DNA of 64,000 nt from assembly GCF_030013595.1 (NCBI RefSeq), contig NZ_CP122768.1; one strand, written 5' to 3'. Each line of letters starts with the position of its first letter. The first letter of the stretch is position 1. This DNA comes from Escherichia coli. Lineage in GTDB: Bacteria > Pseudomonadota > Gammaproteobacteria > Enterobacterales > Enterobacteriaceae. The notes under the pieces are model-generated. The model had not been told where the DNA came from, made no database searches, and saw only the letters and a list, made by a program, of their open reading frames with translations. Position numbers and translations under genes: made by a program. Below are positions 1 to 14,889 of this stretch, piece after piece.

Positions 1-243
1 GAGTCCATGACCTTATCTGTCTGATTCCGCCACTCTGTGCCGGTTTACTGCACCGGCACATCCCCCCTCCGGCAAAATTTGTCCAACCTGTTGTACTCAA
101 TAAGAAAAAATCCGTGCGCTGATTCACAAATTTGTGCGTAATTTCTCCAGTCCGTTGGACGAGGAGCGGGATTTGATGCGCTTCACAATTTTACTCCCCC
201 TGAGCAACGAGACTGATTCCAGTATCTAAGACTGGAGTCCAGT

Positions 244-5851: not shown

Positions 5852-9916
<4,065 letters not shown>

Positions 9917-10072
9917 TGTTATCCCTCTGAAGTTCGTTTTTTACCATTTAGCCATAGTAAAAACATGAATTGTTTGATTTCGCGCATATTCGCTCATAAT
10001 TCGAAAGTGAAACGTGATTTCATGCGTCATTATGAACATTTAACCCATCGTATTTAATAATGTGTGCGGTAA

Positions 10073-10088
10073 TTCACATTTAATTTAT
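10073..10088. promoter_or_regulatory. CRP-type site TGTGC-N6-TCACA in the divergent glpACB/glpTQ control region
   Basis: Sequence tgtgcggtaattcaca matches the CRP consensus half-sites. Confidence 0.5.
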
Positions 10089-10188
10089 GAATGTTTTCTT
10101 AACATCGCGGCAACTCAAGAAACGGCAGGTTCTCCCACTGAATCAGGCTGTTAATCATAAATAAGACCACGGGCCACGGAGGCTATCA

Positions 10189-11547
10189 ATGTTGAGTATT
10201 TTTAAACCAGCGCCACACAAAGCGCGCTTACCTGCCGCGGAGATCGATCCGACTTATCGTCGATTGCGCTGGCAAATTTTCCTGGGGATATTCTTTGGTT
10301 ATGCTGCTTACTATTTGGTTCGTAAGAACTTTGCCCTCGCTATGCCTTATCTGGTCGAGCAGGGCTTCTCACGCGGTGATTTAGGTTTTGCCCTTTCGGG
10401 GATCTCAATTGCTTATGGATTTTCGAAATTCATCATGGGCTCGGTGTCGGATCGCTCGAATCCGCGCGTTTTCCTGCCCGCAGGTTTGATTCTGGCGGCG
10501 GCAGTGATGTTGTTTATGGGCTTTGTGCCGTGGGCGACGTCGAGCATCGCGGTGATGTTTGTACTGTTGTTCCTCTGCGGTTGGTTCCAGGGGATGGGAT
10601 GGCCGCCGTGCGGTCGTACTATGGTGCACTGGTGGTCGCAGAAAGAACGTGGCGGCATTGTGTCAGTATGGAACTGTGCGCACAACGTCGGTGGTGGTAT
10701 TCCGCCGCTGCTGTTCCTGCTGGGGATGGCCTGGTTCAATGACTGGCACGCCGCGCTCTATATGCCCGCATTCTGCGCCATTCTGGTGGCACTGTTCGCC
10801 TTTGCGATGATGCGCGATACCCCGCAATCCTGTGGCCTGCCGCCGATCGAAGAGTACAAAAATGATTATCCGGACGACTATAACGAAAAAGCGGAACAGG
10901 AGCTGACTGCGAAGCAAATCTTCATGCAGTACGTGCTGCCGAACAAACTGCTGTGGTACATCGCTATCGCCAACGTGTTCGTTTATCTGCTGCGTTACGG
11001 CATCCTCGACTGGTCACCGACTTATCTGAAAGAGGTGAAACACTTCGCGCTGGATAAATCCTCCTGGGCCTACTTCTTCTATGAGTATGCGGGCATTCCG
11101 GGCACCCTGCTGTGCGGCTGGATGTCGGATAAAGTCTTCCGTGGCAACCGTGGGGCCACCGGCGTCTTCTTTATGACACTGGTAACCATCGCGACTATCG
11201 TTTACTGGATGAACCCGGCAGGTAACCCAACCGTAGATATGATTTGTATGATTGTTATCGGCTTCCTGATTTACGGCCCTGTGATGCTGATCGGTCTGCA
11301 TGCGCTGGAACTGGCACCGAAAAAAGCGGCAGGTACGGCAGCGGGCTTTACCGGGCTGTTTGGTTACCTGGGCGGTTCGGTGGCGGCGAGCGCGATTGTT
11401 GGCTACACCGTGGACTTCTTCGGCTGGGATGGCGGCTTTATGGTAATGATTGGCGGCAGCATTCTCGCGGTTATCTTGTTGATTGTTGTGATGATTGGCG
11501 AAAAACGTCGCCATCAGGAATTACTGCAAAAACGCAACGGAGGCTAA
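10189..11547 (+). CDS. glpT: glycerol-3-phosphate:phosphate antiporter (MFS)
   Basis: 452-aa ORF; GGAGG precedes the ATG at 10189. Confidence 0.92.
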
Positions 11548-12636: not shown

Positions 12637-12662
12637 CAGGATGGCATTCATGCGCCATCCTG
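12637..12662. terminator. hairpin between convergent glpQ and the LysR gene
   Basis: CAGGATGGC-attcatgc-GCCATCCTG perfect 9-bp stem. Confidence 0.5.
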
Positions 12663-13547
12663 TCTCATATCAAATTTTCCACTCTCCACTAATTGTTCTG
12701 TGCACATTTGTAGTAAAAACAGTGGACTGCCTTCTACCGGCTTTTCTTTAGCCAGCAACGAAATCTGTCGATAGAAGGTTGGTTCGAGAGGAACGGAACA
12801 CAATTCATCTGCAATGGTTTTCAGCGTTAACTCTGGTAATAAGGCGATGCCTAATCCCTGTCGAATAAAACTGATCGCTGTATCCGGGTGATTAAATTCA
12901 TATTTTATCTGTGGGGTAATATTCTTTTCTTTAAATAGTGCCATAATGCTTAATTCATAGCGTCCTTTACTAATAATTAATGGTTCACCCATTAACTCTT
13001 CCACTGTAATAGTGCTGTTTTTTGCCAGAGCATGGTTGGGCGGTAACACTACGGTGAATTTATCCTGATAAATGGGCACGGAGTACATTCCGCTCACCGG
13101 AAAATGAACAAAACCGGCATCAATGGATTCATTCTGAAGGGAATCAATAATCGCTGTGCTATTTTCCTCAAAAGGAATAATTTTTATATTCGGATGATGA
13201 ATTTCAAAGTAGCGAATCACAGCCGGTAAGATACAGGCGCAGACGCTGGGGAAACAACCAAGTCTCAGCGTTCTTTGAGGGTTCTGCTTTTCCTGCTCGG
13301 CTATCTCTTTTACTGCGTTCACTTCCCGATTAATGGCGCGCAGATGATGCATAATGCGGTGACCTGCAGAGGTCAGTTGTATAGCTTTACGGCGATCGCG
13401 TAACAGTATATTCACGCCAAGTTCTTGTTCGAGGGCAGCAATTGCCTGACTTACCGCCGACTGCGTCATGAACAATCGCTTGCTGGCTTCAGTAAAGCCA
13501 CCGTAATCCAGTACGGCGAGTAAAGAATTTATTTGGGTAAGAGTCAT
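12648..13547 (-). CDS. LysR-family transcriptional regulator (intact counterpart of the K-12 yfaH remnant)
   Basis: 299-aa ORF with N-terminal HTH (..FTEASKRLFMTQSAVSQAIAALE..) and a LysR substrate-binding region; AT-rich coding sequence. Confidence 0.8.
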   Translation of the reverse strand: MTLTQINSLLAVLDYGGFTEASKRLFMTQSAVSQAIAALEQELGVNILLRDRRKAIQLTSAGHRIMHHLRAINREVNAVKEIAEQEKQNPQRTLRLGCFPSVCACILPAVIRYFEIHHPNIKIIPFEENSTAIIDSLQNESIDAGFVHFPVSGMYSVPIYQDKFTVVLPPNHALAKNSTITVEELMGEPLIISKGRYELSIMALFKEKNITPQIKYEFNHPDTAISFIRQGLGIALLPELTLKTIADELCSVPLEPTFYRQISLLAKEKPVEGSPLFLLQMCTEQLVESGKFDMRQDGA

Positions 13548-13682
13548 TAGAGTTTGCTAATCAATAATATTAAAACGATTAATTTCTCTAATAGCATGCC
13601 GCCATTTATACTTCTGTTCTGCAAAGTACATCACAATTTGACGCAACCGCAGTAACGGGAGTGTTGTCTGCGAGCGTCATCC

Positions 13683-13701
13683 TGACAGGCGGTAGGGTAT
13701 G
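13683..13701 (+). repeat. 19-bp direct repeat, copy 1 (tgacaggcggtagggtATG), ending at the MFS start codon
   Basis: 18 of 19 nt identical to 14954..14972. Confidence 0.7.
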
Positions 13702-14889
13702 AAAGAGAAGTTATGGACGAAGGATTTTTGGGCAATAACCATCATCAGCTTTATTATTTTCTTCGTCTTTTATGTTTTACTAACATTGTTGCCAATTTAT
13801 ATCTCTGACCGCTTGCATGCCTCTCCTGATAAAGCCGGTTTATTGGTGACTTTATTTTTAATTGCCGCCATTGTTATTCGCCCATTTGCCGGGCAATGGG
13901 TGGGTAAATACTCGAATAAAACTATTCTGGTGCTCTCTTCTCTGGCCTTTTTATTGGTCACAGCGTTGTATCCTTTTTGCCACTCAATTGAATCACTGCT
14001 TTTTATTCGGGTGCTTCATGGTATTACCTTCGGGGTTATCACTACGGTAAAAGGAACGATTTCCGCGCGGCTGATCCCGGCCTCCCGACGTGGGGAGGGC
14101 ATCAGTTTTTTCTCTCTGGCAATGGGGCTGGCAATGGTGGTCGGGCCGTGGATTGGCCTGAATATGGCGCGCTGGGAGGCCTTTAATATGGCTTTCTGGT
14201 TATGCACCGGCGTGGCAGCGGTGGGGATTATTCTGTCGCTGATTATGACAGTGCCGCCGGTTATCAGCCATGCTGATGGTTCAACGCCGAAAATGGGCTT
14301 CGCCGCCATGTTCGATCGCGCGGCGTTGCCATTTGCGATGGTCACCTTTTTTATGACCTTTTCGTATGCCGGGGTTTCTGCTTTTCTGGCGCTTTATGCA
14401 CGCGAACTTAACCTGATGTCGGCAGCCAGTAATTTCCTGCTTTGCTACGCTATCTTCCTGATGATTTGCCGTACCTTTACCGGCAATGTCTGCGACAAAA
14501 AAGGACCGAAATATGTGGTTTACCCTTGCCTTGTGTTCTTTACGGTAGGACTGGTGGTTCTCGGCTACACCCAGGGAAGCATAATGATGGTTGTTTCTGG
14601 CGCATTGATTGGTATCGGGTATGGTTCCGTGACGCCAGTTTTTCAGACGCAGATTATCAGTTCAGTGGAACCGCATAAAATCGGTGTCGCAAACTCCCTC
14701 TTCTTCAATGCGATGGATGCAGGCCTGGCGCTGGGAGCCTGTGTGATGGGGATGATGGTTGCACATACTGGCTACCGAATGATTTATCTGCTGGGTGCAC
14801 TATTAGTGGTAGTGGCTGGTGGAGTCTATGCGCTGCAAATGAAGGGTAAAAGCGGTGTCGCGCTAGTAGTGGCAAAAGAAATTCATTAA
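13699..14889 (+). CDS. MFS transporter, substrate unknown
   Basis: 396-aa ORF with about 12 hydrophobic segments; transcribed divergently from the LysR gene. Confidence 0.8.
   Translation: MKEKLWTKDFWAITIISFIIFFVFYVLLTLLPIYISDRLHASPDKAGLLVTLFLIAAIVIRPFAGQWVGKYSNKTILVLSSLAFLLVTALYPFCHSIESLLFIRVLHGITFGVITTVKGTISARLIPASRRGEGISFFSLAMGLAMVVGPWIGLNMARWEAFNMAFWLCTGVAAVGIILSLIMTVPPVISHADGSTPKMGFAAMFDRAALPFAMVTFFMTFSYAGVSAFLALYARELNLMSAASNFLLCYAIFLMICRTFTGNVCDKKGPKYVVYPCLVFFTVGLVVLGYTQGSIMMVVSGALIGIGYGSVTPVFQTQIISSVEPHKIGVANSLFFNAMDAGLALGACVMGMMVAHTGYRMIYLLGALLVVVAGGVYALQMKGKSGVALVVAKEIH

Follow-up and report, generated by a model that had tools for sequence, protein, structure and literature searches.

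Which sequences in the spacer between the divergent glpA and glpT genes of Escherichia coli are the units that regulators bind, and does a perfect palindrome lying among them have a role of its own? A first interpretation from the letters alone, here called the sequence-only reading, took positions 9917-10188 of the window (the whole 64-kb stretch of DNA analysed here) for a divergent glpACB/glpTQ control region. It pointed out one CRP match and a second inverted repeat that could be a CRP-like or other operator. It also held that both operons are catabolite-controlled and GlpR-repressed, in which it agrees with the literature: both operons depend on CRP and are repressed by GlpR unless glycerol-3-phosphate frees the repressor, and CRP at its site nearest glpT (site 1) is indispensable for glpT.

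The glpTQ-glpACB divergent switch is a long-studied E. coli control region and its content is already known. The K-12 region is reportedly the subject of papers by Larson, Cantwell and van Loo-Bhattacharya in 1992 (J Biol Chem 267:6114) and by Yang, Gerhardt and Larson in 1997 (Mol Microbiol 24:511). It is the same locus as the present one (Larson 1992; Yang 1997; Kurabayashi 2017, PMC5352689). Our overall reading, which we hold to be highly probable, is that the spacer comprises three sites of the CRP/FNR family with interleaved GlpR operators, and that the palindrome is without a role of its own.

The locus and its allele

The ORF ends in the window delimit 9917-10188 as the exact 272-bp intergenic region between glpA (minus strand) and glpT (plus strand), with the ATG codons at 9916 and 10189, respectively. 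The flanking ORFs are annotated as glpA and glpT by RefSeq in genomes of 100% identity. The ORF bounds, these names and the layout known from K-12 all confirm the divergent control region. The features discussed below are collected in Table 1.

A stretch of 901 bases round the region is 100% identical to E. coli chromosomes and is found in 5419 of 5426 complete E. coli genomes. The spacer is 97% identical to that of K-12 MG1655, differing by nine substitutions (10032, the block 10042-10046, 10050, 10070 and 10135). The 5-nt block, between CRP sites 2 and 1, reads AACCC here and TGTAA in K-12, and position 10070 in the spacer of CRP site 1 is T here and C in K-12. The three CRP/FNR-family sites, the four GlpR operators, both -10 regions and both ribosome-binding sites are shared with K-12 unchanged.

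An allele at least 99% identical to the present one over 9960-10095 is carried by about 8% of the complete E. coli genomes. Among seven sampled E. coli alleles, 9929-10031 is invariant and the variation is concentrated in the adjoining 10032-10050.

Table 1. Features of the glpA-glpT control region (window positions; a dot marks features without a strand)
Feature	Position	Strand	Basis and remarks
glpA-glpT intergenic control region	9917..10188	.	Flanking ORFs 8288-9916(-) and 10189-11547(+); RefSeq names
GlpR operator GAAGTTCGTTTTTTACCATT	9929..9948	.	Published +33..+52 of glpA; 14/20; median 14 (36 species)
Putative extended -10-like element TGgCTAAAT (9954 to 9946)	9946..9954	-	Conservation; predicted glpA start ~9939
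GlpR operator ATTGTTTGATTTCGCGCATA	9969..9988	.	Published -8..+12; 15/20; median 15; overlaps FNR-type box
Site 3, FNR-type box TTGAT-ttcg-CGCAT	9970..9991 (core 9974-9987), centre 9980.5	.	FNR core, conservation, footprint
Published glpA start (+1)	9980	-	Derived from published operator coordinates fitted to the sequence
GlpR operator TTCGCTCATAATTCGAAAGT	9989..10008	.	Published -28..-9; 10/20, weak; 20-bp phase with neighbour
Palindrome TGAAA-cgtga-TTTCA	10008..10022	.	Fortuitous dyad; -28..-42 of published glpA promoter
Candidate CRP site 2 AAACGTGATTTCATGCGTCATT	10010..10031, centre 10020.5	.	Matrix, phylogenetic profile; weak in E. coli
GlpR operator CATGCGTCATTATGAACATT	10021..10040	.	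Published -60..-41; 13/20, right half 8/10; median 12
CRP site 1	10060..10081 (core 10063-10078), centre 10070.5	.	Matrix rank 1, footprint, conservation
glpT -10 hexamer TAACAT 10100-10105; start ~10111-10112	10100..10112	+	Published footprint numbering, T-A-n-n-A-T conservation
Published IHF site	10126..10162	.	+15..+51 of glpT (PMC3050690); best core match AATCAGGCTGTTA 10141-10153
glpT ribosome-binding region CACGGGCCACGGAGGCTATCA	10169..10188	+	Shine-Dalgarno GGAGG 10179-10183; sequence, conservation

CRP site 1 and the glpT promoter

The best CRP match of the window has the core TGTGCGGTAATTCACA (TGTGC-ggtaat-TCACA). The sequence-only reading was right about its identity but set it at 10073..10088, and the true place is 10 bases to the left. 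We scored the window with a symmetrised CRP matrix, which is approximate and was built from 21 classical sites. The site 1 22-mer reaches 18.0 bits, within the top of the training range, and ranks first of 63,979 positions. It is also the single occurrence of TGTG-N8-CACA in the 64 kb. Across 36 Enterobacteriaceae, both arms are near-invariant in most species, with a variable 6-nt spacer between them and a median score of 14.4 bits.

The top score coincides with a published protection. On the K-12/EHEC allele, which differs from the present site by one spacer base, the DNase I footprint of cAMP-CRP covers 25 bp including AATGTGTGCGGCAATTCACATT, at -30..-52 of glpT (PMC5352689). This footprint overlaps the glpT -35 box TCACAT, and glpT expression is undetectable in crp and cya mutants (Kurabayashi et al. 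2017, PMC5352689). By the numbering given there for the footprint and the -35 box, the glpT +1 is 10110-10112.

Site 1 is thereby centred at -41.5 of glpT, the class II position, and at -90.5 of the published glpA +1. The glpT promoter has the characters of a class II CRP-dependent promoter, namely a CRP centre near -41.5, overlap with the -35 box and a recognisable -10 hexamer whose T-A-n-n-A-T at 10100-10105 is conserved in the alignment of the 36 Enterobacteriaceae spacers. A scan with the sigma-70 consensus recovered neither real promoter, as expected for activator-dependent promoters.

Downstream of the start, IHF sites were reported at +15..+51 and +193..+227 of glpT (Yang et al. 1997, restated in PMC3050690), and the core match within the first of them agrees with WATCAANNNNTTR at 8/9 positions. 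Most columns of the ribosome-binding region are invariant or nearly so in the 36 Enterobacteriaceae, and the remaining 5′ UTR is variable. The folding of the glpT leader is unremarkable (z=-1.7). An Rfam search matched no family in the intergenic region, its sole hit (E=0.11) being within glpA. The TSS supplement of Kim 2012 holds no entry close to the glpT or glpA start, and in the Crp ChIP-exo supplement glpTQ appears only as a transcription unit.

GlpR operators and the published glpA start

The GlpR operators had been left unplaced by the sequence-only reading, and a consensus scan together with published coordinates now places four. For the scan we used a 20-bp operator consensus that we take to be WATGTTCGWTAWCGAACATW, presumably repeated in tandem with a 20-bp phase. 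This consensus is validated upstream of K-12 glpD, where it finds a 20/20 match followed by an adjoining 14/20; upstream of glpF it finds adjoining matches of 15 and 14.

Scores of at least 14/20 occur at 23 of the ~64,000 window positions, and three of these lie in the spacer (9929-9948, 9969-9988 and 10061-10080). The 15/20 at 9969-9988 is equalled at just one other position of the window. The 14/20 at 10061-10080 was discounted since, by a hand count, a perfect CRP consensus itself gives 12/20 in that register.

Larson et al. 1992 gave the positions of four glpACB operators relative to the glpA start (restated in PMC3050690; Table 1). Fitting them to the sequence at 85 candidate +1 positions yields a unique optimum at 9980 with a score sum of 52, the next best being 36 (mean 27.7, sd 4.7). 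The published operators thus map uniquely to the four intervals in Table 1, and the glpA +1 falls at 9980, 132 bp from the glpT start.

The positions that stand out in the scan, including 9929, 9969 and 10021, are also the peaks of the cross-species GlpR-consensus profile. A half-site scan found a run at 9969(+), 9979(-), 9989(-) and 10000(-), and conserved half-sites, 9989-9998(-) and 10000-10009(-), underlie the operator that is weak as a full-length match. The rightmost operator, 10021-10040, overlaps the right half of CRP site 2. The tandem GlpR operators of glpD and glpFK share the 20-bp consensus and phasing with those of glpA, but the glpA operators are weaker (10-15/20) and interrupted by gaps of 12 bp and 20 bp.

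The FNR-type box

A scan for FNR sites identified a box at 9974-9987, our site 3. It has 7/10 core matches to TTGAT-N4-ATCAA, the joint best in the spacer, and scores 8.5 bits on the CRP matrix (rank 18). The box is near-invariant in Enterobacteriaceae, and a TTGA-type half-site is present in 34 of the 36 species. In 17 sampled lineages it rises to 9/10 of the FNR consensus (TTGATaaggAACAA and variants); these comprise each of the 13 genera sampled from outside Enterobacteriaceae and four genera sampled from inside the family.

FNR is known from the literature to bind the glpA-proximal part of the spacer and to raise anaerobic expression. The footprint of FNR-D154A begins 32 bp upstream of that of CRP and is 70 bp long, and the paper that reports it also names the motif (PMC5352689). 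The protected region maps to roughly 9957-10026, including site 3, the left part of site 2 and the palindrome. Both glpTQ and glpABC are listed as FNR-activated, and an FNR ChIP peak was seen in an hns stpA mutant and none in the wild type in glucose minimal medium. From the published footprint we infer that the box is an FNR site giving the anaerobic induction. A search of the literature for the sequence of the box returned a PCR primer only.

The centre of the box lies at -131.5 relative to glpT and at -0.5 relative to the published glpA +1, which at 9980 coincides with it. Such a place at +1 is odd for an activator unless a second start exists.

ArcA is another regulator considered for this region. 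With a crude matrix of the ArcA box (direct TGTTA repeats 11 bp apart), the best match, at 10073-10090(-), scores 12.5 bits, less than any of the 16 training boxes (14-23 bits). The ArcA ChIP supplementary files searched name glpD, do not name glpT and have glpA only in a reference list. Neither the score nor these files, which show no ChIP peak here, support ArcA.

A putative second glpA start

The surroundings of the box point to a second, FNR-dependent class II promoter of glpA with a predicted start at about 9939, 41 bp downstream of the published one, from which the box would be centred at -41.5. Judged by sequence conservation, we give this promoter an even chance. When 22 sampled Enterobacterales lineages are anchored ungapped on the FNR-type box, an extended -10-like element stands at a fixed distance from the box, with T-17, T-15 and T-7 in 100% of the lineages and G-14 and A-9 in 91%. 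The A at the predicted +1 is present in 95%. In these lineages the box and the ATG are separated by anything from 59.5 to 111.5 nt.

The near-invariant TAGCCA of the element (9949-9954) is outside all four published operators. Taking 9939 as the only glpA start was dropped, as the published operator coordinates fix +1 at 9980. The conserved extended -10 for an FNR-dependent start may be the one new by-product of this analysis, and the second start itself may already be described (Eiglmeier et al. 1989; Iuchi et al. 1990).

If the start at about 9939 is true, two of the published GlpR operators would lie at -9..+11, on the start, and at -30..-49, on the FNR box. The glpA operon would then switch between a CRP-driven start, with site 2 at -40.5, and an FNR-driven start, and FNR bound for the latter would occlude the CRP-driven one. 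The comparative map could guide a test of such a separate FNR-dependent start.

The E. coli ansB promoter is co-activated by FNR at -41.5 and CRP at -91.5. With a glpA start at about 9939, the putative promoter would resemble it in having the FNR box at -41.5 and, farther upstream at -81.5, a CRP site that shares its helical face; in the genera outside Enterobacteriaceae the CRP site would be at -101.5. It would differ from ansB in the spacing of the two sites, 40 (or 60) bp instead of 50, in that the sites also serve a divergent promoter and in the overlay of the activator sites by a repressor, GlpR. The glpA start at about 9939 is a predicted one.

Candidate CRP site 2 and its possible occupants

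The third member of the CRP/FNR family lies between the other two. Presumably it is already on record: the DPInteract compilation reportedly lists exactly these three 22-mers for glpACB/glpTQ, and AAACGTGATTTCATGCGTCATT is reportedly given as a CRP site in both Larson et al. of 1992 and DPInteract. Its centre is at -40.5 of the published glpA +1, again the class II position, at -91.5 of glpT and at -81.5 of the putative FNR-dependent start.

In E. coli the site is weak, with a score of 4.7 bits that ranks 143 of ~64k positions; chance alone would put about 0.6 hits of this quality into 272 bp. Its left half CGTGA is good and its right half GCGTC is poor, matching TCACA at 1/5 positions. The relatives give a stronger site. 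The median CRP-matrix profile of the 36 Enterobacteriaceae (mean -6.3, sd 5.2 over the alignment columns) has exactly three peaks, at 9980.5, 10020.5 and 10070.5, of 8.5, 8.8 and 14.4 bits, respectively. The orthologues of site 2 have a median of 8.8-8.9 bits and a maximum of 15.4, reached in Entomohabitans; Klebsiella oxytoca has 12.5 and Superficieibacter 13.7 bits.

The geometry is also kept. Site 2 is 40 bp from site 3 in 30/36 species and 49-51 bp from site 1 in 33/36. In distant members of the Enterobacterales (Yersinia, Serratia, Pectobacterium, Dickeya, Providencia, Edwardsiella, Brenneria and others) the middle site mostly scores 12-17 bits on the CRP matrix, and its distance to the proximal box is 60 bp in most of them versus 40 bp in Enterobacteriaceae.

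Reports of several or multiple cAMP-CRP sites in the glpTQ-glpACB spacer exist in a review (PMC4790336) and from Genomic SELEX (PMC3105977), and the 2017 footprint with 20 pmol of protein gave a single CRP-protected region (PMC5352689). Given this single region, the E. coli site 2 may be occupied only with more CRP or with cooperativity, or its occupancy may be marginal. Most likely, candidate site 2 binds CRP with low affinity, activating glpA and perhaps also helping glpT.

Another possibility is that 10010-10031 is used in E. coli mainly by FNR, or by FNR together with CRP, so that FNR on GTGAT-ttca-TGCGT would activate the published glpA start anaerobically. The FNR and CRP registers share their centre here, GTGAT matches TTGAT at 4/5 positions and the 70-bp FNR-D154A footprint exceeds one dimer, covering site 3 plus the left half of site 2 (PMC5352689). 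Anaerobic expression of glpA needs FNR, in keeping with its listing as FNR-activated. This need is reportedly a finding of Iuchi and colleagues in 1990.

Several observations nevertheless make the FNR use rather unlikely. The 14-mer 10014-10027 stays below 6/10 FNR core matches, the long protection came at a high protein dose and wild-type FNR ChIP on glucose has no peak at the spacer. The half-sites also diverge in type across the 36 Enterobacteriaceae, with GTGA at site 2, GTGA/GTGC at sites 2 and 1 and TTGA at site 3. The G of GTGA conserved at site 2 favours CRP over FNR, and site 3 keeps TTGA. In the distant taxa, likewise, the middle site is near-consensus for CRP and the proximal one near-consensus for FNR. 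FNR use of site 2 and our main reading of it as a CRP site do not exclude each other.

That 10008-10031 is inert in E. coli we regard as improbable. Site 2 would then have decayed, as its 4.7 bits against the median of the relatives and the single protected region of 2017 may suggest, and 10008-10031 would be merely a poor glpA -35 region conserved by low divergence. However, Escherichia, Citrobacter and Enterobacter have kept both CGTGA and the 40/50-bp geometry. Low divergence also fits poorly with the variation among the E. coli alleles, which piles up at 10032-10050 right beside the invariant 9929-10031, and decay fits poorly with the several or multiple CRP sites of the literature (PMC4790336, PMC3105977).

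The palindrome

The inverted repeat noticed at the start, TGAAACGTGATTTCA (TGAAA-cgtga-TTTCA), is present, but one base to the right of the 10007..10021 given for it, with its centre at 10015. A CRP-family site does overlap it, as had been suspected; that site is read in another register, though, and is centred 5.5 bp rightward at 10020.5. The parts of the palindrome are accounted for by site 2: its spacer CGTGA is the left half-site, its left arm contributes the AAA flank and its right arm TTTCA is part of the variable stretch that separates the half-sites. The left arm also abuts the GlpR operator 9989-10008, and the repeat fills the 12 bp that part two of the published GlpR operators, in the poor -35 region of glpA.

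Symmetry of this extent is ordinary. At least one perfect 5-N5-5 inverted repeat occurs in 33% of dinucleotide shuffles of the region (P=0.33), and the 64-kb window has 85 of them (1.3 per kb). Perfect inverted repeats with 5-nt arms and spacers of 0-12 number 9 in the region against 5.0 +/- 2.8 expected.

Nor is the symmetry conserved. The palindrome is invariant across the seven sampled E. coli alleles but perfect in only 5/36 Enterobacteriaceae species, and the arm changes are one-sided and uncompensated, such as TTTCG in E. albertii and many Citrobacter and TGAAG in E. whittamii. The chance level and these relatives speak against an operator dyad.

Known regulators were fitted to it one by one. 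Read in its own register, the palindrome scores -5.9 and -6.5 bits on the CRP matrix; it has a 5-5-5 geometry versus 5-6-5, and its dyad axis falls on a base and not between bases. No register overlapping it reaches 6/10 core matches to the FNR consensus. As a GlpR operator it was rejected for its place in the inter-operator gap. The Cra (FruR) consensus TGAAWC.SNTHHW fits 10008-10019 with one mismatch; it was set aside as a half-site, with 54 matches of at most one mismatch in the window versus 51.7 expected. The main text of the Cra ChIP-exo paper has no mention of glpT.

The palindrome might still be a genuine operator of another dimeric regulator (NsrR, Cra/FruR or an unknown factor) acting on the glpA -35 region between the GlpR operators. 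Its perfect 5+5 dyad sits in the sole 12-bp stretch of the glpA promoter free of published operators, and TGAAACG, the left arm with part of the spacer, resembles a Cra half-site. NsrR ChIP-seq in CFT073 gave a peak in the spacer, and the half-site predicted for it, ACGTTTCACTT, is the reverse complement of 10005-10015; but this half-site has a low score (4.95) and the peak is centred 58 bp off, at ~9957, which is 41 bp upstream of the start codon of glpA. With a dyad of this size expected by chance, kept in so few relatives, unenriched for Cra and remote from the NsrR peak, we consider such an operator very improbable. In our reading the symmetry of the palindrome is fortuitous, and the repeat neither forms a binding unit nor plays a separate part.

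Joint control of the two operons

In the mechanism that we propose, the three CRP/FNR-family sites, with centres 40 and 50 bp apart, would lie on one helical face, and the GlpR operators would be interleaved with them. The literature shows that cAMP-CRP on site 1, a class II activator, overlaps the glpT -35 region and that glpT does not fire without it. Candidate site 2 would act as a class II site of low affinity for the published glpA promoter, and GlpR at 10021-10040 would probably compete for it.

On its four operators, GlpR would lie over the start and the -10 region of glpA as well as over the FNR-type box and one half of site 2. As published, GlpR keeps glpA shut, and glpT too through action at a distance, as long as glycerol-3-phosphate has not released it.

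Spacers of this kind are known. Shimada et al. 2011 (PMC3105977) grouped the glpTQ-glpABC spacer with those of malEFG-malK, nagB-nagE and melR-melAB, all of them divergent, CRP-controlled and provided with more than one CRP site. In all of them each CRP site is class II for one promoter and distal for the other. The glpTQ-glpABC spacer differs from the rest in that one of its three sites is of the FNR type.

The region is an example of classical multi-operator, action-at-a-distance control and holds little new biology. The main use of the re-analysis is correction, both of the coordinates and of the functional units: in our reading these are the four GlpR operators together with three phased boxes of the CRP/FNR family, and not the conspicuous palindrome. 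The same region sets the GlpT levels and therefore the fosfomycin uptake.

The glpA start

An extended -10-like element, TGgCTAAAT, is conserved in 22 sampled Enterobacterales lineages and keeps a constant distance to the FNR-type box, the centre of which coincides with the published glpA +1 (9980). This element implies that an FNR-dependent glpA start would lie at about 9939, some 41 bp downstream of the published one.

Comparison across taxa

In the Enterobacteriaceae the FNR-type box and the middle CRP site are 40 bp apart; Yersinia, Pectobacterium, Dickeya, Providencia, Edwardsiella, Brenneria and others have them at 60 bp (sampled loci L031-L078 compared with L003-L054). Two alphaproteobacterial records, the complete chromosome of Bartonella choladocola BBC0122 (L074) and a 'Bartonella' MAG (L070), encode GlpT with 86-87% identity to that of E. 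coli, and in the latter a divergent glpA is also present, across a spacer like those of the Enterobacteriaceae. This likeness suggests that both loci may have been acquired by horizontal transfer or, for the MAG, that it may have been mis-binned.

Variation in the spacer

The patch between CRP sites 2 and 1 (10032-10050) is hypervariable within E. coli, and the adjoining 9929-10031 shows no variation in seven sampled alleles. The base at 10032 can be A, T or C; at 10042-10046 the window strain has AACCC, K-12 has TGTAA and other strains have either AAACC or CAACC. The GTAAA of K-12 in this patch, which is similar to a CpxR half-site, is absent from the window strain. Only 411 of 5415 genomes have alleles at least 99% identical to the window strain's over 9960-10095.

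Across 36 Enterobacteriaceae, the sequence around the glpT Shine-Dalgarno is almost invariant and the remainder of the 77-nt leader highly variable. The conserved block reaches about 10 nt upstream of GGAGG for no obvious reason.

In E. coli strain 361 (NZ_CM132954.1), a human blood isolate, an IS1 insertion at the equivalent of 10090/10091 separates CRP site 1 from the -10 hexamer of glpT. The insertion should uncouple glpT from CRP and is plausibly a fosfomycin-resistance lesion.

For perfect 5-N5-5 inverted repeats, those with a 5-nt spacer, the intergenic region holds three against 0.39 expected. Two of them (Table), additional to TGAAA-cgtga-TTTCA, have arms similar to the GlpR half-site ends (ATGTT/AACAT), with a spacing 3 bp less than that of the GlpR operator; the left arm of the glpT-side repeat is not conserved.

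Other CRP-like sites

The second-ranking CRP-like site of the window is flanked by genes for a divergent, intact LysR-family regulator, whose C-terminus has a match to the family of the K-12 yfaH pseudogene remnant, and for an MFS transporter. Two further strong sites are 59 bp apart near the start of the window.

Table. Features of the spacer and the wider window; scores are on the CRP matrix
Feature	Position	Strand	Sequence	Bits
Strong CRP-like site	110-131		ATCCGTGCGCTGATTCACAAAT	14.3
Strong CRP-like site	169-190		GGATTTGATGCGCTTCACAATT	14.2
Extended -10-like element	9946-9954	-	TGgCTAAAT	
Inverted repeat, spacer	9961-9975		AAACA-tgaat-TGTTT	
Inverted repeat, spacer	10091-10105		ATGTT-ttctt-AACAT	
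Conserved glpT Shine-Dalgarno block	10169-10188		CACGGGCCACGGAGGCT	
LysR-family regulator	12648-13547	-		
Strong CRP-like site	13617-13638		TTCTGCAAAGTACATCACAATT	15.6
MFS transporter	13699-14889
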